IMG/VR virus record: IMGVR_UViG_3300046030_000054
Coordinates: 11,952 to 75,951 of that record
Origin: a virus
Lineage: Duplodnaviria; Caudoviricetes
Strand: one strand, 5' to 3'
DNA: 64,000 nucleotides
Below, piece by piece: positions 3,584-28,056 of this stretch (its first letter is position 1; each line of letters begins with the position of its first letter). A program made the position numbers and the translations under genes. The notes under the pieces were generated by a model. It was given only the letters and a program-made list of their open reading frames with translations, was not told the origin of the DNA and searched no databases.

Positions 3584-3591
3584 ACCAAAAG

Positions 3592-5573: not shown

Positions 5574-5580
5574 TTTTAAT

Positions 5581-5625
5581 GGTTTACTTTCTGCCCTCAT
5601 CTGGCTTATTGGTGAGGGCTTTTTT
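5581..5625 (+). promoter_or_regulatory. Bipartite motif copy A2, overlapping polymerase terminator hairpin
   Basis: GGTTTACTTT-N10-CTGGCTTAT; gccctca/tgagggc stem plus T-tract, compensated to gtcctca/tgaggac in B. Confidence 0.6.
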
Positions 5626-5657
5626 AGTTCTCTAATTTAATGAAAGGATCTGAATCT

Positions 5658-6044
5658 ATGTCAGAAGCAACCATAGCAATTACCAAGCTGCGCCAAGATA
5701 AACTGAATCCACACTACCGACCAATGATCTTTGTCATTGCGCCGTTTACAGAAGTAGTAAAGAGCGATGCTAAAAGTACCATGACAGTGCGCTCTTACTG
5801 CCGTTTTATCTATCAACATGGTGGCATCCCCGTTTGTCCACAGCTTTACCTACCTCAATTTATTAACCTGCACCATTCACAGGAATTTCAAGTAGCCACT
5901 TTTATTAACATTGTGCTACTGACTAAATGCGCCGAAGCCTGGTCATTTGGTAAACCGACGCACGATATGTGCTACTTCATCCGCTTTGCCAAACGTAAAA
6001 ATAAAAATATCCGCTACTTTAATAATGAAATGGAGGCCAACTAA
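5658..6044 (+). CDS. DUF4406-like (deoxyribosyltransferase-fold-like) phage protein
   Basis: FVIAPF..YCRFI..GGIPVCPQLYLPQF..LLTKCAEAWSFG pattern. Confidence 0.6.
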   Translation: MSEATIAITKLRQDKLNPHYRPMIFVIAPFTEVVKSDAKSTMTVRSYCRFIYQHGGIPVCPQLYLPQFINLHHSQEFQVATFINIVLLTKCAEAWSFGKPTHDMCYFIRFAKRKNKNIRYFNNEMEAN

Positions 6045-6046
6045 AG

Positions 6047-8302: not shown

Positions 8303-8470
8303 CTGTCATCGACTGTCACACTTTAAAACTCTAAAAGCTTGATACATCAGTGTTTACCAACCCTAATGACAGTCGTGACACTCTTTTACATTACTTGTAT
8401 ATAGGAATAAAAATAGAAAAAAAGAGTATAGAGAAGAGTAGTAAAACAACTGTCACGACCGTCATTAACC
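8301..8470. repeat. Putative replication origin: direct and inverted TGAC(A/G)GTC-type repeats around an AT-rich core
   Basis: gactgtcatcgactgtcac, tgacagtcgtgaca, actgtcacgaccgtca flanking an A-rich tract; same layout in B at 48175-48345. Confidence 0.55.
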
Positions 8471-8514
8471 CTGACGAATCACCGATATATCAACGTTTAG
8501 GAAGGATTTTACAA

Positions 8515-8796
8515 ATGTTAGAAAAACAAATCGAAACTACTTTTGTCAAAGCTACCCACCAACGCGGAGGTCTTTGCCTAAAGTTCACCTCCCCATCGAT
8601 GGCCGGAGTACCTGATCGATTGGTCCTCCTGCCTGATGGTCACATGGGCTTTGTGGAGATGAAGGCTCCTGGTAAACATCCCCGCCCGTTACAAGTGCAA
8701 AGACTCAACCAGTTAAAACAACTTGGTTACCAGGTTTTTGTTTGCGATCAGTTTGATCAGATTGGAGGAATGCTAGATGCAATACAAACCGCATGA
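8515..8796 (+). CDS. VRR-NUC domain nuclease
   Basis: GVPDRLV..FVEMKAPG..RPLQ; start reset to MLEKQIE by comparison with B. Confidence 0.88.
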   Translation: MLEKQIETTFVKATHQRGGLCLKFTSPSMAGVPDRLVLLPDGHMGFVEMKAPGKHPRPLQVQRLNQLKQLGYQVFVCDQFDQIGGMLDAIQTA

Positions 8797-10132
8797 ATAC
8801 CAACAATACGCAACTCAGTTTATTCTGGATCATCCTGTGGCAGCAATCTTGCTTGATATGGGACTAGGTAAAAGCGTCATTACCCTAACTGCTATTAAAC
8901 AACTTATTCAGCAGGGGAAAGTTCAACGGGTATTAGTTGTCGCTCCACTGCGTGTGGCTAAACAAACCTGGCCAGAAGAAATTGAAAAATGGGACCACTT
9001 AAAAGGCCTTAACTATTCAGTCGTCACTGGTTCTAAGTTTCAAAGGATCAAAGCACTGCAGCAAGATGTCGACATTTATATCATTAATCGGGAAAACTTA
9101 AAATGGCTAATTGAATCCTCTGGTACTTCCTTTGACTACGACATGTTGGTGATCGATGAACTCTCCAGTTTTAAGTCTTACCGCTCGCAACGCTTCAAAG
9201 CCCTCAAACGAGTGCGACCACTGATTAAGCGCGTAGTTGGCTTAACAGGCACACCGTCGTCTAATGGCTTGATGGATTTGTGGGCAGAGTTCCGCGTACT
9301 AGACATGGGCCAACGACTCGGCCGTTTCATCTCATCTTACCGAATGAACTACTTTGACCCTGACAAGCGAAACATGTATCAAGTTTTTACCTACAAACCT
9401 AAGCCCGGTGCTGAACAAAGTATCTACCGCGCCATTGATGATATCACCATTTCTATGAAGTCTAAGGACTACTTGAATCTGCCACCATTAACTATGAACA
9501 CCGTTCCGGTAAAAATGAGTAATAGTGAGCAGGCAATCTATGATGAGCTTAATGCCCAGCTAGTAGTTTCAACCCAGGGTAAACAAATCGATGCCCTCAA
9601 CGCAGCCAGTTTATCGAATAAACTTTGCCAGATGGCAAATGGTTGTGTCTACGACGACCAGCAGCAGATTGTTCAAATTCACCAGCGAAAACTTGATGCC
9701 CTTGAAGATTTGGTTGAAGCTGCTAATGGTAAACCTGTCTTGGTAGCTTACTGGTTCAAACATGATCTAATCCAGATTAAAAGTCGTTTCAAGGTTCGTG
9801 AGATCAAAACACCCCGTGACATTCAGGACTGGAATGCCGGTAAGATTCCTTTAGCTTTGATCCACCCCGCTTCTGCTGGTCATGGTCTTAACCTGCAGGC
9901 TGGTGGTGCCACCTTGATTTGGTATGGATTGACTTGGAGCCTGGAGCTTTACCAGCAAACCAACGCTCGGCTCTGGCGACAAGGACAGCGTCAGCCAGTA
10001 GTTATCCACCACATCATCACCGAAGGAACCATTGACGAAAACATTCTGGCCGCCTTGAAACGTAAAGATAAAACCCAGCTAGCGTTAATCAATGCGGTGA
10101 AAGCCAACCTGAAAGGAAGTGTTGTGGCATGA
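8777..10132 (+). CDS. Phage SNF2-family helicase
   Basis: LDMGLGKS, IDELSSFK, GLTGTP, GHGLNLQ, QTNARLWRQGQ. Confidence 0.9.
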   Translation: MQYKPHEYQQYATQFILDHPVAAILLDMGLGKSVITLTAIKQLIQQGKVQRVLVVAPLRVAKQTWPEEIEKWDHLKGLNYSVVTGSKFQRIKALQQDVDIYIINRENLKWLIESSGTSFDYDMLVIDELSSFKSYRSQRFKALKRVRPLIKRVVGLTGTPSSNGLMDLWAEFRVLDMGQRLGRFISSYRMNYFDPDKRNMYQVFTYKPKPGAEQSIYRAIDDITISMKSKDYLNLPPLTMNTVPVKMSNSEQAIYDELNAQLVVSTQGKQIDALNAASLSNKLCQMANGCVYDDQQQIVQIHQRKLDALEDLVEAANGKPVLVAYWFKHDLIQIKSRFKVREIKTPRDIQDWNAGKIPLALIHPASAGHGLNLQAGGATLIWYGLTWSLELYQQTNARLWRQGQRQPVVIHHIITEGTIDENILAALKRKDKTQLALINAVKANLKGSVVA

Positions 10133-10596: not shown

Positions 10597-10744
10597 AAAG
10601 GTAAAACGCAGAACAAACAATCGGCTTATCTATGTTACGATGGTAGTGTAGAAAATTAGGATAAAGGCATTTGCTTTATAACATTGAAGCCTAGCGGTGC
10701 AAAACTGCTGGGCTTTTCTTATACCCTCAGAAAGGAGGAGTGTC

Positions 10745-11122
10745 ATGCCCTACTCACCCAAGAAACCCTGTCGTTACCCTGGCTGCCCGCGACTAACCCA
10801 CAACACTTATTGTGACGTCCATGCTAAGCAAGTCAGCTCTCACTATAATCGTTACCAACGACCAAAGCGTAGTCGTCCGCGCTATCATCACGGCTGGCCA
10901 AAGATCCGTCAACGCTACTTGCTCCACCATCCCTTCTGTGAGATGTGCCTGAGCCAAGGAAGGTATACCCAAGCCACCGAGGTCCATCACGTTCTGCCTC
11001 TGGAGCATGGTGGCACCAACGAGTTCAAGAACCTGATGGCATTATGTAAGCCATGCCACTCCCGCATCACTGCTCAGATGGATGATCGTTGGCATAAAAA
11101 GCCACGTCGATATCATTACTAA
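10745..11122 (+). CDS. Terminase-associated HNH endonuclease
   Basis: PFCEMC..EVHH..NLMALCKPCHSRIT. Confidence 0.9.
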   Translation: MPYSPKKPCRYPGCPRLTHNTYCDVHAKQVSSHYNRYQRPKRSRPRYHHGWPKIRQRYLLHHPFCEMCLSQGRYTQATEVHHVLPLEHGGTNEFKNLMALCKPCHSRITAQMDDRWHKKPRRYHY

Positions 11123-11230
11123 ACCACGGAGGGGACCATCAAATCCTTAAAAATTTTTCGCGCGGGAGCGGGCCTGGGCCTTCGTGTACAAAAAATCGAA
11201 ATCAAACGGGGTATTAACCCCTGCCGAAAG
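11123..11230. other. Putative cos packaging-site region
   Basis: GC-rich noncoding segment between HNH and TerS, the usual cos position in HNH-terminase phages; near-identical in B. Cut site not determined. Confidence 0.45.
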
Positions 11231-11241
11231 GAGGGAGAGAT

Positions 11242-11784
11242 TTGGCTAAGGATGGTACGAATCGTGGTGGATCGCGGGTCGGCGCTGGGAGAAAATCTAA
11301 ATCACTGCATGACAAGCTCGAAGCTGGCCAAGAAGCAACTGTTATCGATTTGCCTGAACCAGCTAATCTGGAAGGACACGTGATGCCGCCAGTCAAGAAA
11401 TACCTCAAGGCCAAACAGAAGAATGGTTTAGAATTTGACGCCGCTGATATTTTTAAAGAAACCTGGGAATGGTTGGTCGAACGTGGTTGTGAAAAGCTAG
11501 TTAACACTCAGCTGATTGAACAATATGCCGTTAGCGTTAGCCGGTGGATCCAGTGCGAAGAATGTATCTCTAAGTTTGGTTTTCTCGCTCGCCACCCTAC
11601 CACTGGTAATGCAATTGCTTCACCATATGTTTCCATGAGTCGTGACTACATGAAGCAATCGAGCCAATTATGGTTTCAGATTTTTCAAGTGGTTAAAGAA
11701 AACAATGCCACGACTTATCAAGGATCAACACCCCAAGATGATGTCATGGAACGACTCTTAAGAAGTCGGAAAGGAATGAACTAA
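11242..11784 (+). CDS. terS: Terminase small subunit (P27 family)
   Basis: RGGSRVGAGRK N-terminus, HPTTGNAIASPY; TTG start with RBS ggagg. Confidence 0.85.
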   Translation: MAKDGTNRGGSRVGAGRKSKSLHDKLEAGQEATVIDLPEPANLEGHVMPPVKKYLKAKQKNGLEFDAADIFKETWEWLVERGCEKLVNTQLIEQYAVSVSRWIQCEECISKFGFLARHPTTGNAIASPYVSMSRDYMKQSSQLWFQIFQVVKENNATTYQGSTPQDDVMERLLRSRKGMN

Positions 11785-13010
11785 TGAAATTTATCAAGAA
11801 AAAAATTGCTGATCTAATTCCTGCCGATTACAATCCGCGTAAAGATCTCAAGCCTGGCGATCCTGATTACGAAAAGTTAAAACGTTCAATGAAAGAATTC
11901 GGTTATGTCGATCCAATCATCTGGAACCAACAAACTGGTCGCATAGTTGGAGGACACCAGCGGTTAAAGATTCTCCAGGATGAAGGGATCGAAGAAGCTG
12001 AGTGCGTTGTTGTTGACCTTAATGAAGAAAAAGAAAAAGCGTTGAATATTGCGCTCAACAAGATCAGTGGTGATTGGGATAAGGATAAGTTAGCCCTCCT
12101 AATGACTGACTTACAAGCCAGTGATTTAGATGTTTCATTAACGGGATTTGACGAGAATGAGATCTCCGACCTTCTTGGCACGGCTGACGACACGCATGAT
12201 GATGACTTTGACGTTGATAGCGAATTGGATAAACCGACCTTTTCAAAGCCTGGTGACTTATGGCACTTAGGTAAACACACTTTATTATGTGGTGACGCTA
12301 CTAAAACAGAAAGCTACCAGAAATTACTGGGTGATCATAAGGTCAACCTAGTATTAACCGATCCTCCATACAATGTCGATTACTCTAGCAAAGCTGGCAA
12401 GATCAAGAATGATCATCAAGCCGATGACAAGTTCTACCAGTTTCTGCTTGCTGCTTTTCAAAATATGAATCAAGCAATGGCTAACGATGCCAGCATCTAT
12501 GTATTTCACGCCGATACGGAAGGCCTTAACTTCCGCCGTGCTTTCCAAGATGCTGGTTTTTATTTATCCGGTTGCTGTATCTGGAAGAAGCAATCATTAG
12601 TACTTGGTCGCTCTCCCTATCAGTGGCAACATGAACCCGTACTCTATGGATGGAAGAAAGATGGCAAACACGAATGGTACACCGGGCGAAAGGAATCCAC
12701 CATCTGGGAATTTGATCGCCCAAAGCAGAGTAAGGAACACCCAACGATGAAACCAATCCCACTATTAGCCTATCCAATCATGAATTCCACCATGTCCAAC
12801 TGTACCGTTCTCGATCCATTCGGTGGTTCCGGTTCAACTCTGATTGCATGCGAGCAAACTAATCGGATTTGTAACATGATGGAACTCGATCCTAAATATT
12901 GCGATGTGATTGTGCAACGTTATATTGAACAGGTTGGTTCAAGCAAAAACGTTAGTGTGGAAAGAAATGGTAAAACTATTCTTTACAGCAAAGTAAAAAA
13001 GCCGGCTTAA
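11784..13010 (+). CDS. ParB-like domain + N6/N4 DNA methyltransferase
   Basis: ADYNPR and VGGHQR (ParB-like); TDPPY, HPTMKP, DPFGGSGST (MTase). Confidence 0.9.
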   Translation: MKFIKKKIADLIPADYNPRKDLKPGDPDYEKLKRSMKEFGYVDPIIWNQQTGRIVGGHQRLKILQDEGIEEAECVVVDLNEEKEKALNIALNKISGDWDKDKLALLMTDLQASDLDVSLTGFDENEISDLLGTADDTHDDDFDVDSELDKPTFSKPGDLWHLGKHTLLCGDATKTESYQKLLGDHKVNLVLTDPPYNVDYSSKAGKIKNDHQADDKFYQFLLAAFQNMNQAMANDASIYVFHADTEGLNFRRAFQDAGFYLSGCCIWKKQSLVLGRSPYQWQHEPVLYGWKKDGKHEWYTGRKESTIWEFDRPKQSKEHPTMKPIPLLAYPIMNSTMSNCTVLDPFGGSGSTLIACEQTNRICNMMELDPKYCDVIVQRYIEQVGSSKNVSVERNGKTILYSKVKKPA

Positions 13011-13024
13011 ATCGTCGAAGTTCC

Positions 13025-13078
13025 TTGCTATCTGTACCCTTTAGAGTGATGTATACAGTGATCAAACAAGGAGGTACA
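13025..13078 (+). promoter_or_regulatory. Putative internal promoter and RBS for a two-gene moron
   Basis: ttgcta...gtgatgtatac...aaggagg conserved in B (52901-52949); -10 is imperfect. Confidence 0.4.
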
Positions 13079-13082
13079 GAAG

Positions 13083-13703
13083 ATGGAAATTAAATTTAAT
13101 GTACACGGCCAGCAACGAAAAGAATTGGTGACGAAGCTGGCTGACTATACTCATCGAAAGGCCGAATATCAATACACACCTACCTACGCTTATCAGATTG
13201 GCAAGTACACTGTTAACAAAGATGGAGTCCTAACATCCCCGGATGAGATCCCGGCCAATTTACTCGATTATCTTGAACAGCAAGGCTTCCACCCTACTGA
13301 AATAATCAAGTTGAACCTAGCCTACCAGCGAGATAAGTTTACAGATCAGGCTCTTGATAACCTGCGCCACCTAATCTGGGCTAAGGGGCAGTTAATTAAG
13401 GACGCTTGCCAGCTGGAAGCCCTCCCCTTAAACGTCGATGAAAAACAGGTATCCTTCGATTGGTTTAAAGAAGTGAAACTTGACGATGCTTTTGCTTATC
13501 AACAATTTGTCGACAAGCTGGTCCAATATGCCATCAGCCACCAGCGAATCATGTCAGAACCACACGAAGAGAGTAATGAAAAATATGCTTTCCGCTGTTT
13601 CCTGCTACGCCTAGGATTTATCGGTCCCAAGTTTAAAGACCAACGGAAAGTATTGTTACGCAACTTAACTGGATCAGCTGCTTTTAAGAACCAGGGGGAC
13701 TAA
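13083..13703 (+). CDS. Phage 'virulence-related'-type hypothetical protein
   Basis: YQYTPTYAYQIG and NEKYAFRCFLLRLGFIG..RKVLLRNLTGSAAFK. Confidence 0.7.
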   Translation: MEIKFNVHGQQRKELVTKLADYTHRKAEYQYTPTYAYQIGKYTVNKDGVLTSPDEIPANLLDYLEQQGFHPTEIIKLNLAYQRDKFTDQALDNLRHLIWAKGQLIKDACQLEALPLNVDEKQVSFDWFKEVKLDDAFAYQQFVDKLVQYAISHQRIMSEPHEESNEKYAFRCFLLRLGFIGPKFKDQRKVLLRNLTGSAAFKNQGD

Positions 13704-13705
13704 TC

Positions 13706-13912
13706 ATGAATCGAATTAAGGACGAATTAGCTAAACGTAACCGAATCCGCCAGCAGGTCTTAAAAATCCGCAACACTGGTGAAGCCAATATGTTTGATGT
13801 GGAAAATGTCAAAAGACTGGCATACTACTATAACTACCATGACTTAATCGATTACTTGAATACTGACCGCGCCGGATACGTAAATTTGATATTAACTGGC
13901 AAGTTTAATTAA
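13706..13912 (+). CDS. DUF5049-like small protein
   Basis: KIRNTGEANMFD..V..LA..Y..ILTG pattern. Confidence 0.7.
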   Translation: MNRIKDELAKRNRIRQQVLKIRNTGEANMFDVENVKRLAYYYNYHDLIDYLNTDRAGYVNLILTGKFN

Positions 13913-13921
13913 TCATCAATC

Positions 13922-13951
13922 AAGCATTGAGTTAACACTCAGTGCTTTTTT
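13922..13951 (+). terminator. Intrinsic terminator
   Basis: aagcattgag/ctcagtgctt stem plus T-tract. Confidence 0.65.
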
Positions 13952-13979
13952 AGTACAACTGAAAGGATGTGATGCCCTC

Positions 13980-15578
13980 TTGCGAAAACTAAAAGATTAC
14001 AAGCCAACTAGGTTCATGGCCAAGGACTCTACTTATAACAAAGACGCAGCTGATTTTGCAGTTTCATTTATCGAATGCCTATGCCATACCAAGGGAACCT
14101 GGGCGGGTAAGCCTTTTGACCTCATTGACTGGCAGGAAAAAATTATTCGCGACATTTTTGGCATCTTAAAACCTGATGGGTATCGTCAATTCAATACTGC
14201 TTACGTCGAAATTCCAAAAAAGCAAGGCAAATCAGAACTGGCGGCGGCTGTTGCTCTACTGCTTTGCTGCGCTGATGGTGAAGAACGTGCAGAAGTTTAT
14301 GGTTGTGCTGCTGATCGCCAGCAGGCCGCCATTGTTTTTGACGTCGCCGCTGATATGGTGCGGATGAACCCAGCCTTAAAAAAGCGTTGTAAGATCCTCG
14401 CTTCCCAAAAACGGCTGATCTATGAGCCAACTAATAGTTTCTATCAAGTCCTATCTGCTGATGCTTATTCCAAGCACGGTTTCAACGTGTCAGGAGTAAT
14501 TTTTGATGAATTACACACTCAACCCAATCGTAAACTCTACGACGTCATGACTAAGGGTTCCGGCGATGCTCGAACGCAGCCGCTCTACTTTTTAATCACG
14601 ACTGCCGGTAATGATGAACACTCTATCTGTTACCAGGTTCATCAAAAAGCAATCGACATCATGAAGGGCCGTAAACATGACCCCCGTTTTTATCCGGTTA
14701 TTTACGGTGCCGGGCGTGATGAAGATTGGTCGAGTCCTGAAGTTTGGAAGAAAGCTAATCCCTCCCTGGGTATTACCGTCAAGATGGAGAAGGTTAAGGA
14801 TGCTTATAATTCAGCTAAGGAGAATCCGGCTGAAGAGAACACCTTCCGACAACTACGGTTAAATCAGTGGGTGAAGCAAGATGTTCGATGGATGCCGATG
14901 GACAAATGGGATGCTTGTGCCTTTCCTGTTGATCCCGATGAATTACGTGGCCGCGATTGCTATGGTGGCCTTGACCTGTCATCAACTACTGATATTACGG
15001 CTTTTGTACTGGTGTTTCCTCCTAGAGATGATTCAGAAGGTTACACCCTGCTACCTTACTTCTGGATTCCCGAGGATAACGTTGATTTGCGGGTTCGCCG
15101 TGATCATGTCCCCTACGATATTTGGAAGCAGCAGGGATATCTACAAACCACAGAAGGTAATGTCGTCCACTATGGCTTCATAGAACACTTCATTGATGAT
15201 CTCGGAAAGAAATACCATATCAAGGAAATTGCCTTTGACCGTTGGGGTGCAGTCGAAATGGTCCAGAATCTTGAAGGAATGGGCTTCACGGTAGTGCCAT
15301 TTGGCCAAGGGTTCAAAGATATGACTCCACCAACCAAAGAGTTGATGCGCTTAACTTTGGAAAAGAAAATTGCTCACGGTGGACACCCAGTTTTGCGTTG
15401 GATGATGGACAACATCTACATTCGAACTGATCCGGCAGGCAACATCAAACCAGATAAAGCAAAATCAACTGAAAAGATAGATGGCGTTGTCGCTACTATC
15501 ATGGGATTGGATCGCGCCATTCGCAATGAAGACAGTGGTGATTCTGTTTATGATGGTCGAGGTTTATTGATGTTGTAA
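13980..15578 (+). CDS. terL: Terminase large subunit
   Basis: IPKKQGKSE Walker A, IFDELH Walker B, GGLDLS, KIDGVVA. Confidence 0.93.
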   Translation: MRKLKDYKPTRFMAKDSTYNKDAADFAVSFIECLCHTKGTWAGKPFDLIDWQEKIIRDIFGILKPDGYRQFNTAYVEIPKKQGKSELAAAVALLLCCADGEERAEVYGCAADRQQAAIVFDVAADMVRMNPALKKRCKILASQKRLIYEPTNSFYQVLSADAYSKHGFNVSGVIFDELHTQPNRKLYDVMTKGSGDARTQPLYFLITTAGNDEHSICYQVHQKAIDIMKGRKHDPRFYPVIYGAGRDEDWSSPEVWKKANPSLGITVKMEKVKDAYNSAKENPAEENTFRQLRLNQWVKQDVRWMPMDKWDACAFPVDPDELRGRDCYGGLDLSSTTDITAFVLVFPPRDDSEGYTLLPYFWIPEDNVDLRVRRDHVPYDIWKQQGYLQTTEGNVVHYGFIEHFIDDLGKKYHIKEIAFDRWGAVEMVQNLEGMGFTVVPFGQGFKDMTPPTKELMRLTLEKKIAHGGHPVLRWMMDNIYIRTDPAGNIKPDKAKSTEKIDGVVATIMGLDRAIRNEDSGDSVYDGRGLLML

Positions 15579-15606
15579 TTGCGAAGAACTGAAAGGAGTT
15601 GATGCC

Positions 15607-16872
15607 ATGAGTCTATTTAATAAATTGTTCCATACCAATAAAGCTTCACCCAAAAACACCCTATCCAGCACCATGTCATTTTTCTTCGGCAGTTCGATGG
15701 CTGGCCAAAATGTGACCGAACGCACCGCAATGCAGAATACTGCAGTTTATGCTTGTGTTCGAGTCTTGGCTGAAGGATTAGCTGAACTGCCACTCCATAT
15801 TTATCAATATACCAGCGATGGTGGGAAAAAGCGGGCAACTAACCACCCGCTTTATTTTTTGCTTCATGATGCGCCAAATCCAGAAATGACCAGTTTTATC
15901 TTTCGCGAAACCATGATGAACCATTTATTACTGTGGGGTAATGCCTATGCACAAATCATTCGAAACGGTCAAGGCAAGATCACTGGGCTCTATCCTTTGA
16001 TGCCAGATCGAATGGACGTTAACCGTGCTGCTAACGGTGAAATCTACTACACCTATACTCGCAACTATGATGATTACCAGGCAAAGAATAAATCGAAGCA
16101 AGTAATTCTCTTGTCCGATGAAGTCCTTCACATCGCAGGGTTAGGATTTGATGGTTTGATTGGTTACAGTCCTATTGCTATGGCTAAGAATGCTATTGGA
16201 TTATCCATGGCTGCCGAACAATATGGGGCCACCTTTTTCAAAAATGATGCCACACCTGGTGGTGTTCTCGAGCATCCTAATGTAGTCAAAGATCCCGAAC
16301 GGCTCCGGAAAAGTTGGCAATCACAATTTTCGGGATCTAATAATCACAGCATTGCTGTCTTGGAAGAAGGAATGACTTTTCATCAGCTTTCCATTCCACC
16401 CGACCAAGCGCAATTTCTTGATACTCGAAAATTCCAACTCGACGAAATCGCCAGAATTTTTCGTGTACCACCGCATATGGTTGGTGACCTAGATCGTTCG
16501 ACATTCTCAAATATCGAGCAACAATCACTAGAATTTGTAAAGTACACCCTGAACCCTTGGTGCATTCGCTGGGAACAAGCTATGAATCAACAGCTTCTTT
16601 CCGCTGATGATCAACGAAAGTTTTTCGTCAAATTCAATGTTGATGGATTACTACGTGGCGATTACGAAAGCCGAATGAATGGCTATGCTATTGGGCGCCA
16701 AAATGGTTGGCTGTCTGCAAATGACATTCGAGAACTTGAAGATCTAAACCGCATCCCTACTAATGAAGGCGGTGACGAATACTTGGTAAATGGCAATATG
16801 CTGCCACTCAACCAAGCTGGTAACTTCTATAGTTCTCAACCATCTAAAGAAAGTGAGGAACCAAAAGAATGA
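15607..16872 (+). CDS. HK97-family portal protein
   Basis: AVYACVRVLAE, LLWGNAYA, EIARIFRVPP, NGWLSANDIR. Confidence 0.93.
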   Translation: MSLFNKLFHTNKASPKNTLSSTMSFFFGSSMAGQNVTERTAMQNTAVYACVRVLAEGLAELPLHIYQYTSDGGKKRATNHPLYFLLHDAPNPEMTSFIFRETMMNHLLLWGNAYAQIIRNGQGKITGLYPLMPDRMDVNRAANGEIYYTYTRNYDDYQAKNKSKQVILLSDEVLHIAGLGFDGLIGYSPIAMAKNAIGLSMAAEQYGATFFKNDATPGGVLEHPNVVKDPERLRKSWQSQFSGSNNHSIAVLEEGMTFHQLSIPPDQAQFLDTRKFQLDEIARIFRVPPHMVGDLDRSTFSNIEQQSLEFVKYTLNPWCIRWEQAMNQQLLSADDQRKFFVKFNVDGLLRGDYESRMNGYAIGRQNGWLSANDIRELEDLNRIPTNEGGDEYLVNGNMLPLNQAGNFYSSQPSKESEEPKE

Positions 16873-17540
16873 AACGTTTCTGGAACTGGAGTGGCCCTCA
16901 GAATCAACGTGTATTAACTATTAACGGTACAATTGCTGAAGATAGCTGGGTTGATGATGAAGTCACTCCTCAATTATTTCAAGATGAATTAAGTCAAGGG
17001 AAAGGGCCGATCGATCTCTGGTTAAATTCTCCCGGTGGTGACTGTGTCGCTGCCAGTCGCATTTACACGATGCTAATGAATTATCCCGATAACGTGAACG
17101 TCAAAATTGATGGTATTGCTGCTTCGGCAGCATCAGTCATCGCCATGGCAGGCACAAAAGTTTCCATGGTCCCAACCGCGATGATCATGATCCATAATCC
17201 ATTAACCATTGTTGGTGGACAAAAAGAAGATCTTGATCAAGCTGCACAAATGTTAGCTGAAACCAAAGAATCAATTATCAATGCCTATGAACTTAAAACA
17301 AACCTTCCTCGAGAAAAAATTTCATCCATGATGGATGATGAAACCTGGATGAATGTCAATAAAGCGATTGAGTTGGGGTTCGCTGACGATATGCTAGGTC
17401 AAAACAAAGATGTCACGGATTGTTACTCATATTCAGATAAACAATCTGAATTGGTTCTATTGAACAAGCTAAAACCACAAGCAAAATCTAATATCTCTGT
17501 AAAGTCGCTGCAAAAGCGGCTTTCTTTGTTATCACACTAA
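16869..17540 (+). CDS. ClpP-like prohead protease
   Basis: LNSPGGD, GIAASAASVIAMAG, MIHNP. Confidence 0.9.
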   Translation: MKRFWNWSGPQNQRVLTINGTIAEDSWVDDEVTPQLFQDELSQGKGPIDLWLNSPGGDCVAASRIYTMLMNYPDNVNVKIDGIAASAASVIAMAGTKVSMVPTAMIMIHNPLTIVGGQKEDLDQAAQMLAETKESIINAYELKTNLPREKISSMMDDETWMNVNKAIELGFADDMLGQNKDVTDCYSYSDKQSELVLLNKLKPQAKSNISVKSLQKRLSLLSH

Positions 17541-17559
17541 TTTTTAGGAGGACTTATCA

Positions 17560-18738
17560 ATGAGTAAAATTACTGAATTACAAGAAAAGCGTGCCCGTAT
17601 TTGGAAACAAGCAAAGGATTTCCTAGATGCTAAGCAAAAGGAATCAGATGTACTCTCAGCCGAAGACAATGCCCGTTATGAAAAGATGGAGCAAGAAGTT
17701 GTCGACTTAGGTAAGGAAATCAATCGACGGCACAAGCAGGCAGAAATTGAAGTGGCACTGAACCAACCTACCTGTAAGGCCCTTACTAATTCCCCAACTG
17801 CTGATCAGCTACCAAAGAGACAGGATGCTTATGCAAAAGATTTCTGGCAAATGATGCGTGGACATGCCGTCGTGGATGCTCTTAAGGAAGGTGCGGACCC
17901 CGATGGTGGTTTCTTAGTGCCCGACGAATTTGAAAACCAACTTATCCAAAAGTTGCAAGAAGCAAACGTGCTGCGAACGATCAGTCATGTCATCCAAACC
18001 AATAGCGGCGAACACAAAATTACAGTGGTAGCCAGTGAAGGTACTGCAGCCTGGCTCGAAGAAGAAGCGGCCTACACAGAGTCCAACACTCAATTTAGTC
18101 AGGTGTCACTAGGCGCACATAAGTTGGGGACCCTGATCAAAGTATCAGAAGAATTACTAAACGATTCCGCATTTGATTTGATGTCTTATCTCTCCGATGA
18201 ATTTGGACGCCGACTCGGTAATGCTGAAGAACAGGCCTTTTTAACCGGTACCGGTACTGGTCAACCTACTGGTATCCTAACCGACACTAATGGCGCTTCA
18301 GCCGGATCCACAGCTGCCAAGGCCGATGCGTTAACTTTTGATGATTTAATTGACCTTTTCTATTCCTTAAAGGCGCCATATCGTCAAAACGCTGTCTTTT
18401 TGATGAACGATGATACCGTGAAAGCCATCCGCAAAATGAAAGATAAGAACGACCAATACATTTGGCAACCTTCCGTTCAGGTAGGCCAACCAGACCGAAT
18501 TCTTAACTGTCCGGTTTACACTAGTCCATTCATGCCGACATTGGCTGCTGCTAATAAGCCAGTTCTTTTCGGTGACTTTAACTACTACTGGATTGCAGAT
18601 CGAGAAGGACGAACCTTCAAACGTCTGAATGAACTTTATGCCGTAACTGGTCAAGTTGGCTTCTTAGGCTCACAACGAGTTGACGGTAAAGTTATCCTAC
18701 CAGAAGCAATTAAAACCTTGTCCATGGCTGCTAAATAG
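17560..18738 (+). CDS. HK97-type major capsid protein
   Basis: Coiled-coil N-terminal delta domain, DGGFLVPDEF, FGDFNYY. Confidence 0.93.
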   Translation: MSKITELQEKRARIWKQAKDFLDAKQKESDVLSAEDNARYEKMEQEVVDLGKEINRRHKQAEIEVALNQPTCKALTNSPTADQLPKRQDAYAKDFWQMMRGHAVVDALKEGADPDGGFLVPDEFENQLIQKLQEANVLRTISHVIQTNSGEHKITVVASEGTAAWLEEEAAYTESNTQFSQVSLGAHKLGTLIKVSEELLNDSAFDLMSYLSDEFGRRLGNAEEQAFLTGTGTGQPTGILTDTNGASAGSTAAKADALTFDDLIDLFYSLKAPYRQNAVFLMNDDTVKAIRKMKDKNDQYIWQPSVQVGQPDRILNCPVYTSPFMPTLAAANKPVLFGDFNYYWIADREGRTFKRLNELYAVTGQVGFLGSQRVDGKVILPEAIKTLSMAAK

Positions 18739-18754
18739 AAAGGATTGATGAAAT

Positions 18755-19033
18755 GTGGCTGCTATTACTTTGGCCGAAGCAAAAGCCTACCTGAGGGTGG
18801 ATAACACTGTTGAGGATGACCTAATTACGAAGTTAATTGGATCGGCAACAGCTACAGTCGAGAATGTACTTCGTCAACCACTATCCGCATTCGACCCCCT
18901 CCCCGATGATATTCATACCGCAATTCTTTATACCGTGGCTTACCTTTACGAATATCGGGAAACCGCCGATTTTGATGCCATGATCAAATTTCTCCGGGCC
19001 ATCTTGTCTCCTTACCGGAAGGAGGAGTTTTAA
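18755..19033 (+). CDS. Head-tail connector (gp6-like)
   Basis: LAEAKAYLRVD..EDDLI..LI..A; AILYTVAYLYEYRE. Confidence 0.88.
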   Translation: MAAITLAEAKAYLRVDNTVEDDLITKLIGSATATVENVLRQPLSAFDPLPDDIHTAILYTVAYLYEYRETADFDAMIKFLRAILSPYRKEEF

Positions 19034-19416
19034 TGCAACAACAAAACAAACGTGTTAGTAAGATTGTTGATATTGGTGAATTAGACCGGCGCATAACGCT
19101 AATGAAGAAGAAATATGTCGGCGAAAATCCTAATACTGGAATGTCAATGTACAAGGATGTACGTCTGGGTGATGTGTGGGCAAAAGTTTCCGCCCTGCAC
19201 GGACAAGAGTATTACACCGCTGTCACCGTAAAATTGGAAAAGCAATTATCATTCATCATTCGATATCGCGATGATATTGATGAAGAAACCAATATATGGT
19301 TTGAAGGACGTGGCTACAATATTGGCTTCATTGACGATGTTAAATACAACCACGAGTATATGGAGATCAAGGCCGAATATTCGAAAGGAGTTGATAATCC
19401 AAATGAAGACAACTAG
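19033..19416 (+). CDS. Head closure / head-tail adaptor (SPP1 gp16-like)
   Basis: IGELDRRITL, VWAKV, FIIRYR, motifs typical of head-closure proteins. Confidence 0.82.
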   Translation: MQQQNKRVSKIVDIGELDRRITLMKKKYVGENPNTGMSMYKDVRLGDVWAKVSALHGQEYYTAVTVKLEKQLSFIIRYRDDIDEETNIWFEGRGYNIGFIDDVKYNHEYMEIKAEYSKGVDNPNEDN

Positions 19417-19813
19417 TTTAACGGTAATCAATACGTGTTTCGGAGCTATTGGCGCTTTCCTTGGCTGGTTTTTAGGAGGACTCGATGGTTTCCTATATAT
19501 TCTCCTGATTTTTATGGTCGTGGACTATATCACCGGAGTTCTTTGCGCCGTTAGTGAACATAAATTATCCAGTGAGATTGGATTTCGCGGGCTTACCCGC
19601 AAGGTTTTAATTCTATTATTGGTTGGCATTGCTCACTGTCTTGATGTGTATTTACTAAAAAATGGCTCCGCAATTCGCACAGCAACCATTTTCTTCTATA
19701 TCTCTAACGAAGGTATTTCTCTATTAGAAAACACGAGTCGATTAGGATTACCTGTACCCGATAAATTAAAAAATGTTCTTCAACAACTTCATAATAAGGA
19801 TGGTGACAAGTAA
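19403..19813 (+). CDS. Phage holin
   Basis: Three hydrophobic segments; DYITGV, SSEIGFRG, NEGISLLEN; start reset to MKTTSL after aaaggag. Confidence 0.88.
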   Translation: MKTTSLTVINTCFGAIGAFLGWFLGGLDGFLYILLIFMVVDYITGVLCAVSEHKLSSEIGFRGLTRKVLILLLVGIAHCLDVYLLKNGSAIRTATIFFYISNEGISLLENTSRLGLPVPDKLKNVLQQLHNKDGDK

Positions 19814-20691
19814 TGATTCCAGGAATCGATATTTCTGAATGGCAAGGTCACGTTGATTTTAATGCAGTCAAAGCAAGCGGCGTAAAATTCGTCCTAATTA
19901 GAGCTGGCTACGGTCGTTCTGCTAGCCAAGTAGATCATTATTTTGCGGAACACTATGCACAAGCCAAAGCGGCAGGTTTGCAAGTTGGGGCCTACTGGTG
20001 CTCCTATGCAGTTTCACCTGCTGATGCAGCCAACGAAGCTCGGGCTTGCTTAACCGTCCTTGGTAATCGGCACTTTGATTATCCAATCTACTTTGATTTG
20101 GAAGAAAAGTGGCAATTTGCTAACGGACGCAACTTTTGTGATAGCTTAGTAAAAAGCTTCTGTAGCGTTTTGGAACAGAATGGTTGCTATGCGGGTTTAT
20201 ATATTTCTCGTTCACCACTGCAAAATTACATCTCTCCCACTGTTGCTCAGCGTTATGCAATCTGGATAGCCGAATATGGTCCACGTTGTAACTATGGTGG
20301 TAATTACGGAATCTGGCAACATTCCTCTACTGGTTCTGTTCCAGGTGTCAATGGCAACTGTGATCTAGATTATGCCTATATCGATTACGCAGCAGTTATT
20401 AACAAAAAACAGCCAGTTACCAGGAAGAACCCTGATCAGCTGGCTGCAGAAGTATTGAATGGGCAATGGGGTAATGGTGTCGATCGTCAAAAACGTTTAA
20501 CTGCTGCGGGTTACGACTACTCAGTCGTGCAAGAAAAAGTTAATAAATTATTGAATCGTAAGTCAGTCGACCAAATTGCCCGTGAAGTTATCCGTGGTTC
20601 CTGGGGAAATGGTAATGAGCGAATTACCCGTTTGAAACAAGCTGGTTATGATCCAATTCAAATTCAAAAACGTGTCAATCAATTACTCTGA
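19813..20691 (+). CDS. GH25 endolysin with two C-terminal CW_7-like repeats
   Basis: GIDISEWQG, YFDLEE, WQHSS; repeats LAAEVLNGQWGNG and IAREVIRGSWGNG. Confidence 0.9.
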   Translation: MIPGIDISEWQGHVDFNAVKASGVKFVLIRAGYGRSASQVDHYFAEHYAQAKAAGLQVGAYWCSYAVSPADAANEARACLTVLGNRHFDYPIYFDLEEKWQFANGRNFCDSLVKSFCSVLEQNGCYAGLYISRSPLQNYISPTVAQRYAIWIAEYGPRCNYGGNYGIWQHSSTGSVPGVNGNCDLDYAYIDYAAVINKKQPVTRKNPDQLAAEVLNGQWGNGVDRQKRLTAAGYDYSVVQEKVNKLLNRKSVDQIAREVIRGSWGNGNERITRLKQAGYDPIQIQKRVNQLL

Positions 20692-21162: not shown

Positions 21163-21402
21163 ATGGTAAAAAAAGTACAACCAGTGACTCATCAACCACT
21201 AATAGCAACAAGTACGAATATTAGTTCAGAGCAATTATTGAACGATTTGCATTATCAACAAGCAAAACAGATCATCCAGACTCTACTTAATAAAGGCCTT
21301 ATTTCGCCCACCGAATTTAAAGACATTGATTCCTTAAATAAACAATCATTTCCACCATTATTAGGGCCCGGAAACGTTGATACATCAAGCCTCCAGAGCT
21401 AA
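21163..21402 (+). CDS. SHOCT-like small protein (possible recombination accessory factor)
   Basis: LLNKGLISPTEFKDID pattern; immediately precedes the recombinases in both elements. Confidence 0.7.
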   Translation: MVKKVQPVTHQPLIATSTNISSEQLLNDLHYQQAKQIIQTLLNKGLISPTEFKDIDSLNKQSFPPLLGPGNVDTSSLQS

Positions 21403-21431
21403 CATACCACACTGACGAAAGGAGGGTTGTC

Positions 21432-23093
21432 ATGTCAACCATTACTAAAATCCAAAGCTACCACCGTAATGTCAAGCAACTCCGTGTAGCAGCTTATTGT
21501 CGAGTTTCGACGGACAATATTGAACAGCTGGAGAGTCTTGAAAATCAACGTGCCCATTATCAAAAGTACATTAACAACCACCCTAATTGGGAGCTGGCTA
21601 AGATCTACTATGATGAAGGAATCTCAGGCACCAAGATGACCAAGCGGAACGCCTTAAAAGAATTACTAACTGATTGTCATAATCACCGGATTGACCTCGT
21701 GGTGACCAAATCAATTAGCCGTTTGTCACGAAATACAACTGATTGTTTGCAGATTGTCCGGGAATTACAGCAATTGAATATTCCAATTATCTTTGAGAAA
21801 GAGCATATCAATACTGGAGCAATGGCCAGTGAGTTATTTCTATCGATTCTTAGCAGTATTGCCCAGGATGAATCCCACTCAACTGCCGGAAATCTACGCT
21901 GGGCAATCAGGAAACGTTTTGCTAGTGGCAAATTCCATGTATCCTCAGCACCCTATGGATATTCAATTGAGGATGGCAACTTAGTTATCAACCATACTGA
22001 AGCAAAGACTGTACGACAAATCTTTCAACGATTTCTAAGTGGAACATCAGCCAGTCGGATTGCTAAAGGATTGAACCATAAACACGTAGCAACAAAGCGT
22101 GGTGGACAATGGCGAAGCAACACCGTGATTAACATTTTACGAAACAGTAATTACACCGGTGATATGCTCTGCCAGAAGACTTATAGTGATGATCAATATC
22201 ACCGTCATTTTAACCAAGGTGAACTCACCCAATACTTAATTGAGGATCATCACCCTAGTTTAGTTAACCACGAAACTTTTAACAGAGTTCAAGTTCTGCT
22301 TAAAGAAGCGGTCCAAAAGTGCCATATTGAAACTGGCAGCCATAAGTACCAACACCACTACTTATTTTCTGGGAAAATCACTTGTGGCAATTGTGGCACT
22401 ATTTTTAAGCGGCAAACACGTCCCAATAAAATTTGCTGGGCTTGTCAAAGACATCTAAGTTCCGCTAAGCAATGTCCTGTTAAAGCAGTAACTGAAGTAA
22501 GCCTAGAAGCAGCTTTCTGCAACATGATGAATAAACTCATTTACAGTAGGAAATTCTTATTACAGCCATTGTTAGCAAATTTACAAGTTCAAGCTAACAG
22601 TGATACCAACGGTCAGCTAAGTTCATTGGTCAATCAGGTTAAGGCAAATGACCGCAAAGCAGAAACGCTAACCGAATTGATGCAATCAGGATTGCTGGAT
22701 AAAGCCATCTATGTAAATCAAACGGCTCAGCTCGAACAGGATACCTACCAATGCCGCGAAAAGATTAAACAGTTTAATAGCAACAATACTGATTCGGCAA
22801 ATAATTTTGAAAACGTGCGAACCCTGCTTCATTGGTGTCAACAAGGTCAAAAACTGTCAGGCTTTAATAAAGCCCCATTTCAGGACTTCGTTCAACAAAT
22901 TGTAGTGAACAGTCCAAAAGAGGCGGTTTTCAAACTGAAATGCGGGTTGAGATTAACTGAGAAGTTAACCAAAGCAGCTTGCCTTGATGAACACTTTTAC
23001 CGTGGGGTAATCCGCCAACGTTTCAGCGAACCAATTCGGCAAGCAGAATACTTGTACAGCATTATCGAAAGTGAAGGTGATTTAATTGGGTAA
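21432..23093 (+). CDS. Large serine recombinase 1
   Basis: AAYCRVST catalytic motif, TKSISRLSRN, recombinase domain, zinc ribbon CGNCG..WAC, coiled coil. Confidence 0.92.
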   Translation: MSTITKIQSYHRNVKQLRVAAYCRVSTDNIEQLESLENQRAHYQKYINNHPNWELAKIYYDEGISGTKMTKRNALKELLTDCHNHRIDLVVTKSISRLSRNTTDCLQIVRELQQLNIPIIFEKEHINTGAMASELFLSILSSIAQDESHSTAGNLRWAIRKRFASGKFHVSSAPYGYSIEDGNLVINHTEAKTVRQIFQRFLSGTSASRIAKGLNHKHVATKRGGQWRSNTVINILRNSNYTGDMLCQKTYSDDQYHRHFNQGELTQYLIEDHHPSLVNHETFNRVQVLLKEAVQKCHIETGSHKYQHHYLFSGKITCGNCGTIFKRQTRPNKICWACQRHLSSAKQCPVKAVTEVSLEAAFCNMMNKLIYSRKFLLQPLLANLQVQANSDTNGQLSSLVNQVKANDRKAETLTELMQSGLLDKAIYVNQTAQLEQDTYQCREKIKQFNSNNTDSANNFENVRTLLHWCQQGQKLSGFNKAPFQDFVQQIVVNSPKEAVFKLKCGLRLTEKLTKAACLDEHFYRGVIRQRFSEPIRQAEYLYSIIESEGDLIG

Positions 23094-24663
23094 AGTACGC
23101 ATTATTCCCGCCCATCAGCAAAAAGGAAACAGTGTCCATCATCCACGTAGTCCACAATCTTTTGGAAAGCTTCGAGTGGCTGCATACTGCCGGGTTTCGA
23201 CCGATTACGATGAGCAGGCCAGTTCTTACGAAACTCAAGTAGATCATTACAAAGAACTAATTCAAAAGGAGCCATCCTGGGAATTTGCAGGTATTTATGC
23301 CGATGATGGGATCTCCGGAACCAATACCAAAAAACGGGAACAATTCAATAAAATGATTGCAGCCTGTAAAGTCGGTAAGATTGACCTGATCGTTACCAAA
23401 TCAATTAGCCGATTTGCCCGGAATACCATCGACTGTTTGAAATATATCCGTGACTTAAAAGCTATCAATGTTGCAATCTTCTTTGAAAAAGAAAATATCA
23501 ACACCATGGATGCCAAAGGTGAAGTTTTGATTACCATCATGGCTTCCCTTGCTCAACAAGAAAGTGAGTCCTTATCGCAAAACGTCAAGATGGGGATTCA
23601 ATATCGTTACCAACAAGGGAAAGTTTTCGTGAACCATAATCACTTTCTGGGTTATACCAAGGATGCTCAAGGTAACTTGGTGATTGAACCAGAAGAAGCA
23701 AAGGTCATTAAGCGTATCTTCTATAGCTACCTAAACGGAATGACGATGAAGCAAATAGCTGATTCTCTTAAAGCAGATGGTATTTTAACTGGTGGCAAAA
23801 CAAAGAATTGGCGTTCTAGCAGCGTGGCCAAAATCCTGAAGAATGAAAAATATATGGGTGATGCTCTATTACAAAAGACTTACACTGTGGACTTTCTGAA
23901 CAAAAAGCGCGTAAAGAACGAAGGAATCATGCCACAGTACTATGTGGAGAACGACCACCCAGCGATTATTCCTAAATCAGTGTTCATGCAAGTCCAGCAA
24001 ATTATCAAACAGCGACGTAACGGAATCACGACTAAGAACGGCAAGCACCGGCGAATTAACGGAAAATACTGCTTTTCTCAAAAAGTATTCTGCGGTAAAT
24101 GCGGTGATATCTTGCAACGGAACATGTGGTATCGACCGGAAAAAGTGGCAGTCTGGCGATGTGCAAGCCGCGTAAGACGCAATAAGACTGGCCGGCGATG
24201 CATGATTCGAAACGTCAAAGAACCATTGCTGAAGGAAACCACCGTTGAAGCATTCAACCAGCTCATTGAAGGGCATGAGCTGGTCAGTAAACAAATCAAA
24301 GCTAACATCATGAAAGTCATTAAAAACTCCAAAGGTCCAACACTTGATCAAATCGACCAACAGCTGGAAGAAGTGCAAATGAAGTTGATTCAAGCTGCCA
24401 ACCAGCATCAAGACTGCGACGCGCTAACCCAGCAAATTATGGACCTTCGCAAACAAAAAGAAAAAGTACAGAGTCGGGAAACTAATCAACAAGCCAAACT
24501 ACACAACCTTGATGAAATCAACAAATTAGTCGAATTGCACAAGTATGGCTTAGTTGACTTTGATGAACAATTGGTTCGTCGCTTGGTAGAAAAAATCACC
24601 ATCTTCCAACGCTACATGGAATTCACGTTCAAAGATGGTGAAGTAATTAGAGTTAATATGTGA
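23086..24663 (+). CDS. Large serine recombinase 2
   Basis: AAYCRVST, TKSISRFARN, NEKYMGDALLQKT, CGKCG..WRC. Confidence 0.92.
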   Translation: MGKVRIIPAHQQKGNSVHHPRSPQSFGKLRVAAYCRVSTDYDEQASSYETQVDHYKELIQKEPSWEFAGIYADDGISGTNTKKREQFNKMIAACKVGKIDLIVTKSISRFARNTIDCLKYIRDLKAINVAIFFEKENINTMDAKGEVLITIMASLAQQESESLSQNVKMGIQYRYQQGKVFVNHNHFLGYTKDAQGNLVIEPEEAKVIKRIFYSYLNGMTMKQIADSLKADGILTGGKTKNWRSSSVAKILKNEKYMGDALLQKTYTVDFLNKKRVKNEGIMPQYYVENDHPAIIPKSVFMQVQQIIKQRRNGITTKNGKHRRINGKYCFSQKVFCGKCGDILQRNMWYRPEKVAVWRCASRVRRNKTGRRCMIRNVKEPLLKETTVEAFNQLIEGHELVSKQIKANIMKVIKNSKGPTLDQIDQQLEEVQMKLIQAANQHQDCDALTQQIMDLRKQKEKVQSRETNQQAKLHNLDEINKLVELHKYGLVDFDEQLVRRLVEKITIFQRYMEFTFKDGEVIRVNM

Positions 24664-28018: not shown

Positions 28019-28056
28019 CAATCAGCTATAAATGCCGTCATACCGGCGTTTATCGG

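Follow-up and report, generated by a model that had tools for sequence, protein, structure and literature searches.

Phage-derived integrative elements of lactobacilli that keep intact head genes and lack a tail module

The window analysed here, which is the whole stretch of 64,000 nucleotides taken from a Caudoviricetes record (IMG/VR IMGVR_UViG_3300046030_000054, positions 11,952 to 75,951), contains two diverged copies, A and B, of a phage-like gene set. The following features were found in and around copy A, where genes were called by Pfam and PHROGs profile matches:

755..1273, + strand: sigma-70 region-4 protein, opening the long rightward operon in copy A (Pfam Sigma70_r4_2)
1891..10132, + strand: replication module, with genes for a DUF2800 nuclease, an Enc34-type ssDNA-binding protein, family A DNA polymerase, DUF7768, a D5-type primase-helicase, VRR-NUC and an SNF2 helicase (Pfam)
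10697..11122, + strand: HNH endonuclease of the packaging module (Pfam HNH)
11123..11241, no strand: conserved non-coding stretch 5' of terS, candidate cos (packaging) site
11242..11784, + strand: terS, small terminase (Pfam Terminase_4, phrog_83)
11784..13010, + strand: ParB-N-terminal / N6_N4 DNA methyltransferase (Pfam)
13083..13703, + strand: amidoligase-like fragment, 206 aa (phrog_2443 and phrog_8677, given jointly for 13083..13912)
13706..13912, + strand: small conserved ORF, 68 aa, DUF5049-type (same joint PHROGs match)
13980..15578, + strand: terL, large terminase (Pfam TerL_ATPase and TerL_nuclease)
15607..16872, + strand: portal protein (Pfam Phage_portal, E 3.5e-129)
16869..17540, + strand: ClpP-type prohead protease (Pfam CLP_protease)
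17560..18738, + strand: HK97-type major capsid protein (Pfam Phage_capsid, E 1.2e-89)
18755..19033, + strand: Ad1 head-tail adaptor, gp6-like (Pfam Phage_connect_1, phrog_40)
19033..19416, + strand: Hc1 head closure, the last head-side neck protein (Pfam Phage_HCP, phrog_25)
19403..19813, + strand: holin (Pfam Phage_holin_4_1, E 4.5e-45)
19813..20691, + strand: endolysin, GH25 muramidase with CW_7 repeats, in copy A only (Pfam)
21163..24663, + strand: SHOCT-domain protein and two large serine recombinases (Pfam)
27749..28098, - strand: right end of element 1, replacement rlmD 3' end (ends HVESVTVLERTEK*)

The gene order of the replication module matches that of the Heliusvirales phage NatCom_11578. 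The HNH gene and the stretch before terS belong to the packaging module and lie outside the interval described by an earlier, sequence-only reading of this DNA; three further genes (the methylase, the amidoligase-like fragment and the small ORF) separate terS from terL. The stretch at 11123..11241 is 97% identical between copies A and B and among several species, against only ~84% for the core, and its own 57-nt core holds 88-89% identity even where the capsids of the elements are only 73-75% identical. From its position between HNH and terS we infer that it is a candidate cos site.

The corresponding part of copy B reads as follows:

51117..59302, + strand: head and packaging genes terS, methylase, terL, portal, protease, capsid, Ad1 and Hc1, all intact
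59289..59699, + strand: holin, overlapping Hc1, with no endolysin after it (Pfam)
60175..63675, + strand: SHOCT protein and two serine recombinases (Pfam)

The gene set and order are those of copy A, with an HNH gene ahead of terS here too, and every gene is intact; the missing endolysin is a clean 885-bp difference (A 19813-20698 vs B 59699-59706). The Ad1 protein is 100% identical between the copies, with 0 non-synonymous and 24 synonymous differences, just as the sequence-only reading had reported for its connector. That reading also had the holin directly after the closure gene with an overlapping start, which the sequence bears out in both copies; in copy A the first in-frame ATG of the holin is at 19403, giving a 14-nt overlap with Hc1, whose stop is at 19414-19416. 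Its claim of a complete head-and-lysis module stands for the head part in both copies and fails for the lysis part in copy B, which has a holin and no endolysin, so that lysis is complete only in copy A. A holin was found in every element and an endolysin in about half, being present in 21 IMG/VR relatives and absent from 21.

Element 1 meets element 2, right end to left end, at the crossover ACATG|CCACGAG at ~28094-28098, and identical junctions flank single elements in the intact rlmD of L. timonensis, L. coleohominis and L. antri. Sizes between att junctions are 37,580, about 37,800, 37,934, 38,167 and 39,635 bp, in keeping with the predicted scale of ~40 kb; the predicted own polymerase is present, and primase and recombinases are likewise encoded. 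This size range is narrow though the cargo is unrelated between elements. The left arm of element 1 holds defence-type genes only, and all elements have a large cargo of defence or counter-defence genes that varies from one to the next. The core of the element is 86% identical between L. timonensis and L. coleohominis, whereas rlmD and its flanks are only 68-70% identical, and elements from different species and genera show 84-93% identity with mosaic segments. The elements are therefore far more alike than their hosts, which indicates that they are still moving between genera. Plasmid relatives were searched for and none were found. Both copies are members of a widespread family of ~38-40 kb phage-derived mobile elements in lactobacilli.

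No tail genes or remnants were found in the 39,635-bp element, and tblastn of 16 tail proteins from two tailed relatives against the whole 75.9-kb record gave zero matches, confirming for both copies what had been read from the sequence. A hidden tail gene among the unknown ORFs was considered and rejected: the unknown ORFs of the core are small, with matches to non-structural PHROGs, and cargo ORFs are defence-type and differ between elements. Tail genes were equally absent from the 17 Lactobacillaceae loci in species genomes (0/17), from the evaluable IMG/VR relatives (0/45) and from 6 further loci (L. gasseri, L. delbrueckii, Ligilactobacillus agilis and L. animalis types), making ~68 tail-less close relatives in total. 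All close relatives that could be judged thus lack tails and have the same Hc1-holin junction, which could be aligned across the full set of 19 sequences (17 loci and the two copies in the window). Among more distant relatives, which are Ca. Heliusvirales-type prophages, 37 of 41 have a full siphovirus tail at this very position. NatCom_11578 shows the same gene order plus a tail module of 11-12 kb; in the Zhenhengia prophage L043, Ne1, tail terminator, major tail and tape measure are followed by a holin 55% identical to that of the element, and another tailed relative (G256) has a holin 62% identical, SHOCT and both recombinases. Streptococcus relatives of the phi1207.3/phi-m46.1 type do carry tails, as had been stated beforehand. 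Streptococcus 'Javan' records of 33-38 kb were rejected as tail-less relatives, since Javan499 has a full tail and represents a partial prophage call. The tree groups the tail-less elements in a single clade (SH-aLRT 100), which branches within tailed prophages of the Heliusvirales type. Tailed close relatives with recent deletion scars, which could have refuted the idea of a stable tail-less element, were not seen; there is one old common junction, and it marks where the tail module was lost.

The head genes are under strong purifying selection. Between copies A and B their dN/dS is 0.005-0.11 at a dS of 0.46-2.7, where synonymous sites are near-saturated (terS 0.005, terL 0.008, HK97 capsid 0.026 at dS 2.7), so the relaxed selection that would have spoken against such an element is not seen. 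Across the clade, pS for head genes is 0.6-0.9 against a pN of 0-0.2. Ad1 and Hc1 are among the best-conserved proteins in the comparison of A and B, and Hc1 is duplicated in one branch of the clade.

Because the tail genes were lost and the head genes were nonetheless kept working, the elements most likely spread by borrowing the tails of other phages, an inference for which there is no direct evidence in the form of particle, packaging, transfer or virome data. We consider it probable, with substantial doubt remaining, that they form an old, still mobile clade of integrative elements of Heliusvirales-type descent, whose tail was lost in one deletion and whose heads have since been tailed by co-resident or co-infecting phages. 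The ancestor would have been a temperate phage of the Ca. Heliusvirales type that still had its tail, and a single ancient deletion, falling exactly on the border between the head and tail assembly pathways, presumably removed the tail module from Ne1, the neck protein on the tail side, through the last tail gene. In the life cycle that we propose, the two large serine recombinases would excise the element from the rlmD 3' end and re-insert it there (the junctions are observed, the activity is inferred), and the polymerase, primase-helicase and ssDNA-binding protein, for which the genes are present, would replicate it. HNH, TerS and TerL are predicted to cut at the conserved pre-terS site and fill HK97-type heads built from the element's own portal, protease and capsid protein; for this step genes and selection are in evidence, and activity is again inferred. 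The role of adaptor and closure proteins is established for SPP1- and HK97-type necks, and by inference from these Ad1 and Hc1 would close the filled head, leaving it ready for tail docking. The holin might then open the cell, aided by an endolysin of the element or, where that gene is missing (about half of the elements), by a lysin from a helper or the host. Finally, the tail-less heads may gain infectivity through free siphovirus tails of a co-resident or co-infecting phage, a step that rests on analogy with capsid-forming PICIs (cf-PICIs), for which it has been demonstrated by experiment. Whether the element is an obligate tail parasite in the full sense, namely a full-sized, self-replicating, self-packaging and self-lysing Heliusvirales descendant minus its tail, with the freed space given to defence and counter-defence cargo and with passage among at least four Lactobacillaceae genera via any compatible tails, is a question on which we see the chances as even.

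Possible sources of tails were sought in the host genomes. In two of the six examined (L. timonensis and L. pontis) no tail genes at all could be recognised, with no match to tape measure (PF10145, phrog_58), Dit, Tal or Ne1, and in these hosts tails would need an outside source. Other siphovirus prophages with type-1 necks occur in three of the five host genomes examined first and in genome G135; such co-resident prophages, where present, are complete phages, each with a portal and capsid of its own, and the resident L. antri prophage encodes Ne1, the tail-to-head joining protein. No pairwise similarity was detected between the Ad1 and Hc1 of the elements and those of co-resident prophages, which neither supports nor excludes compatibility, and no helper phage was identified. 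The missing helper, the lack of Ad1/Hc1 similarity and the two tail-free host genomes all count against the proposed life cycle, as do the absence of an endolysin from about half of the elements and a damaged head gene in 6 of 48.

The missing helper and the two tail-free host genomes, together with the large and variable cargo of every element, leave room for a benefit that does not run through tails: heads may be made and filled and then serve some other form of DNA delivery or protection, or be selected mainly for interfering with infecting phages by soaking up tails or packaging machinery while guarding the defence island. We think this unlikely. The element clearly moves between genera, and we know of no tail-independent entry route for HK97-type heads. 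Moreover, a plug would not obviously need either the conservation of the docking proteins Ad1 and Hc1 or the duplication of Hc1.

A defective, cryptic prophage lineage, with its tail deleted, its other genes in decay and its wide range due to recent spread before the loss or to passive transfer by other means, could accommodate the broken head genes of those 6 elements, a capsid fragment with two stops in one species genome and the endolysin gone from half of the family. However, the six head genes are all intact in 42 of 48 elements, so that the intactness claimed by the sequence-only reading mostly holds. The deletion junction is common to the whole clade, including members at 73-79% capsid identity; since the loss, synonymous sites have become saturated with the head proteins nearly unchanged, the candidate cos site has been conserved, and the elements remain much more alike than their hosts. 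Decay is already disfavoured by the selection data and we rate it as very improbable. The earlier preference for a stable tail-less element over a decayed prophage is instead supported by the common old junction, the purifying selection and the intact head genes. That the element is half of a split phage, with a dedicated tail-only cassette elsewhere in the genome completing an ordinary phage, might be suggested by the siphovirus prophages with type-1 necks in several hosts, but these are complete rather than tail-only and a partner locus is rejected on the strength of the two host genomes without recognisable tail genes, leaving this reading scarcely credible.

Whether phages can give rise to satellites is an open question, and in this family the parent lineage, the one deletion and the clade's long persistence afterwards are all legible in the sequence. 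If the tail-borrowing reading is true, an identifiable phage lineage would here have turned directly into a satellite-like element through one deletion, and the case would be a clear one; should the elements work in the way proposed, tail theft would extend beyond small PICI-type islands to elements of phage size. Carriers are common among lactobacilli of food, probiotics and the gut (L. gasseri, L. delbrueckii, L. fermentum, Limosilactobacillus and Ligilactobacillus species), and the 12-15 kb of anti-phage and anti-defence genes carried between genera bears on phage resistance in starters and probiotics. Many carriers are culturable type strains, so the proposal is directly testable; intact elements are present in L. 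frumenti DSM 13145, L. panis DSM 6035, L. antri DSM 16041 and L. timonensis Marseille-P3825.

In a limited literature search we found no description of tail-less Heliusvirales or of large capsid-forming satellites in Lactobacillaceae. Ca. Heliusvirales are temperate siphoviruses, for example NatCom_11578 (PV036426.1) and the Streptococcus phi1207.3 / phi-m46.1 group (PMC11283538). The element shares with them the gene order from polymerase through recombinases, TerL (57-81% identical), portal (54-66%) and capsid (47-59%), the holin family after the structural genes and the serine recombinase pair, and one relative from Streptococcus suis takes its name from the rum (rumA/rlmD) locus into which it is inserted. 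Those phages are 47-64 kb long, however, with a tail module of 11-12 kb (Ne1, tail terminator, major tail, tape measure, Dit, Tal and others) between Hc1 and holin, none of which is present in the Lactobacillaceae clade. Homologous TerL, portal and capsid and the synteny of replication and head genes thus meet the description of the group, and the requirement for complete virion genes with a siphovirus tail is failed. The elements also fail the criterion for defective prophages (relaxed selection and pseudogenes in structural genes) and that for gene transfer agents, a fixed, vertically inherited operon without replication or integration genes, since they have their own replication genes, recombinases and a candidate cos site and are closer to each other than their hosts are.

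The cf-PICIs, with EcCIEDL933 as prototype (10.1101/2022.09.08.507074, 10.1101/2025.02.11.637232, PMC10085698), release tail-less, DNA-filled capsids able to bind tails from various phages, and which tails are compatible depends on the adaptor and connector proteins of the cf-PICI (10.1101/2025.02.11.637232). Both kinds encode HNH, TerS, TerL, portal, protease, capsid, head-tail adaptor and connector without tail genes, and in both near-identical copies occur across different species or genera. In contrast to cf-PICIs, with a median of 14 kb, small capsids, a tyrosine integrase, an AlpA-type regulator, a Pri-Rep replicon and no holin, the element is 38-40 kb long, encodes a sigma factor of its own along with a D5 primase and a family A polymerase, always has a holin but not always an endolysin, and bears two large serine recombinases at its right end; it is also still fully syntenic with a phage order that can be identified. 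In SatelliteFinder a holin is a forbidden component, and elements over 30 kb were discarded (PMC10085698); current satellite finders therefore exclude such elements by design. The cf-PICIs are the closest known kind, and their criteria of an own packaging and capsid set and no tail genes are met, but the element falls outside their definition by its holin, its size and its lack of the PICI-type left module (tyrosine integrase, AlpA/MerR-type regulator and Pri-Rep replicon).

The IMG/VR provirus record is 75.9 kb long, and the window, which covers its final 64 kb, holds two diverged copies of one element, A and B, that are 83.5% identical across 19 kb and 79% identical at the recombinase end. 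Their contents are as follows.

Window 626-24748: core of copy A
Window 40520-63760: core of copy B
Left arm of element 1: DUF2513, GmrSD, ResIII helicase, Eco57I-type methylase, HamA/HamB-like proteins
Copy A, first part: sigma factor, DUF2800 nuclease, Enc34-type ssDNA-binding protein, family A polymerase, DUF7768
Copy A, after DUF7768: D5 primase-helicase, VRR-NUC, SNF2 helicase, HNH
Copy A, after HNH: terS, ParB-methylase, amidoligase-like fragment, small ORF, terL
Copy A, after terL: portal, ClpP-type protease, HK97 capsid, head-tail adaptor (Ad1), head closure (Hc1)
Copy A, after Hc1: holin, GH25/CW_7 endolysin, SHOCT protein, two large serine recombinases
Between the copies: pncA, pncB, NrtR; then the element 2 cargo of SNF2, type III restriction-modification and ABC-3C components

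The first in-frame ATG of the holin gene lies at 19403, 14 nt ahead of the Hc1 stop. Copy B has the gene set of copy A minus the endolysin, a clean 885-bp difference (A 19813-20698 versus B 59699-59706). The sequence-only reading had proposed a complete head-and-lysis module without tail genes in both copies; the head genes and holin are indeed present in each, but lysis is incomplete in copy B. Tail genes are absent as claimed: 16 tail proteins from two tailed relatives gave zero tblastn matches in the whole 75.9-kb record, an absence that is real and far beyond chance, and the PHROG matches of core ORFs of unknown function were non-structural. Over a tract of ~1.3 kb (window 2976-4300 versus 42846-44170), spanning the DUF2800 end, the ssDNA-binding gene and the polymerase start, the two copies are essentially 100% identical against a background of 70-90%, with a longest identical run of 912 nt, a pattern suggesting that the stacked copies recently underwent gene conversion.

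The closest phage matches of the element are genomes of Ca. Heliusvirales, a group of tailed temperate siphoviruses; capsid identity to these does not exceed 59%. One of them, NatCom_11578, shares the element's gene order from the polymerase to the two recombinases and carries in addition, after Hc1 and before holin/endolysin, a tail module of 11-12 kb. A Zhenhengia prophage (L043), whose holin is 55% identical to that of the element, has Ad1 and Hc1 followed by Ne1/tail completion, tail terminator, major tail, tape measure and more tail proteins, and then the holin. Another tailed relative, in a genome of a Lactobacillaceae sample (G256), encodes SHOCT and both recombinases along with a holin of 62% identity, and the expectation that Streptococcus relatives carry tails was borne out for the phi1207.3 type. 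In necks of the SPP1 and HK97 types, Ad1 and Hc1 complete the head, while Ne1 and Tc are parts of the tail. The position of the tail module in tailed relatives thus implies that the loss began precisely at the first tail-side neck protein and ended with the last tail gene.

Is the element a decayed prophage, or has taillessness been maintained? In all 17 Lactobacillaceae loci from species genomes (capsid identity 79-99%; among them Limosilactobacillus frumenti, antri, panis, pontis, coleohominis, timonensis, galli, pulli and albertensis, and Lactiplantibacillus garii), the holin directly follows Hc1 with zero tail matches. All 45 evaluable close relatives in IMG/VR likewise lack a tail. Matches in the protein database (capsid identity 73-86%) add L. 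oris, Lactobacillus gasseri, L. delbrueckii, L. fermentum and Ligilactobacillus animalis, ruminis and agilis to the clade; the six loci examined among these are all tail-less and adjoin rlmD. Throughout the clade the Hc1-holin junction can be aligned. More distant relatives with at least 3 kb downstream have tail genes in 37 of 41 cases, beginning 0.6-1.4 kb past the capsid. In a midpoint-rooted tree of terL, portal and capsid, 16 tail-less rows form a single clade (SH-aLRT 100) nested among tailed Clostridia prophages.

The head genes are under strong constraint, dN/dS between A and B being 0.005 for terS, 0.008 for terL, 0.036 for portal, 0.113 for protease, 0.026 for capsid (dS 2.7), 0 for Ad1 (24 synonymous changes) and 0.020 for Hc1, with 0.028 for the holin. 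Against other clade members pS is 0.6-0.9, near saturation, and pN only 0-0.2. Of 48 elements with the six head genes together on a single contig, 42 have every one of them intact. Two of the checks proposed by the sequence-only reading, dN/dS and a survey of homologues, thus both came out in favour of a stable tail-less lifestyle, which, as an inference from comparative and selection evidence, is well supported over decay.

Some relatives differ in other ways. In two Defluviitaleaceae MAGs (L057, L059) a serine recombinase comes immediately after terL, portal, protease and capsid; adaptor, head closure, tail and lysis genes are all missing, and these relatives may be further reduced. Two Lachnospiraceae loci (L060, L065) encode, ahead of opposite-strand genes, an adaptor, a head closure protein and a few small neck/tail-like ORFs; tail queries found no match there, and either their tail module is truncated or their tail is of another type. 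In L. coleohominis 101-4-CHN (L009) the portal gene of an otherwise intact element has an internal stop, making this strain poorly suited to induction tests.

In L. timonensis, L. coleohominis and L. antri an intact rlmD, the 23S rRNA uracil methyltransferase gene, carries one element within its 3' end, with junctions ACATG|CCACGAG on the left and ACATG|CGTCGTC on the right; the rlmD tail is replaced by one from the right end of the element. The same left-type junction also occurs at record position 410 and window position 28094, so that the two elements lie stacked head to tail, with a length of 39,635 bp for element 1. Others measure 37,934, 37,580 and 38,167 bp, and ~37.8 kb in G135, a narrow range despite differing cargo. 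Small cargo varies in the slot between the recombinases and rlmD (L199:16563-17153; L198:17528-18385; L201:18091-18852; window 24826-27692): an Apyc1-like metallo-beta-lactamase-fold protein (a weak anti-Pycsar hint from Pfam), Mrr, a PLD-family nuclease or an NrtR-pncB-pncA NAD salvage set. Some elements have toxin-antitoxin genes within the packaging operon (L202:7216-7724; L199:3887-4162), either a DUF6290/ParE pair that separates terL from portal or, downstream of terS, a Phd/YefM-type gene. The GC-rich, non-coding 119-nt HNH-terS spacer (window 11123-11241) is 97% identical between A and B, above neighbouring coding DNA, and its 57-nt core retains 88-89% identity in the L. delbrueckii and L. 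agilis types; on sequence alone, this would fit a conserved packaging site, a candidate cos site.

The elements are mobile across genera. Between L. timonensis and L. coleohominis the core is 86% identical versus 68-70% for rlmD and flanks, and across species and genera elements are 84-93% identical and mosaic; the L. frumenti portal, for example, is almost identical to that of copy A, while synonymous sites in the L. frumenti terL have reached saturation. The most likely route of transfer is tail borrowing, although this remains an inference. Four of six host genomes examined contain one to three siphovirus prophages each, of the same neck type as the element; the other two (L. timonensis, L. 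pontis) gave no other adaptor, head-closure, tape-measure, Dit, Tal or Ne1 match. Element Ad1 and Hc1 showed no pairwise similarity to their resident-prophage counterparts, and no helper phage could be named from these six genomes. Among IMG/VR relatives (L111-L156), 21 have the endolysin and 21 lack it, with the holin always kept; lysin-less elements may depend on the lysin of a helper or host. An L. delbrueckii-type locus (L198:11498-12306) has two tandem Hc1 paralogues, 63% identical and differing mostly at residues 20-50, where its close relative L201 has one; that the duplication widens the range of dockable tails is speculation.

Our literature search found no description of such tail-less elements. 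In the virion sense, the element is not a member of the tailed Heliusvirales. Functionally, the closest known kind is the capsid-forming PICI (cf-PICI), which has its own heads and packaging and no tail; its tail-less filled capsids dock the tails of several phages, with compatibility determined by adaptor and connector (10.1101/2025.02.11.637232). However, cf-PICIs are defined by the lack of a holin, small size and a tyrosine-integrase/AlpA/Pri-Rep module (PMC10085698); the element fails all three, and a finder using those rules would reject it.
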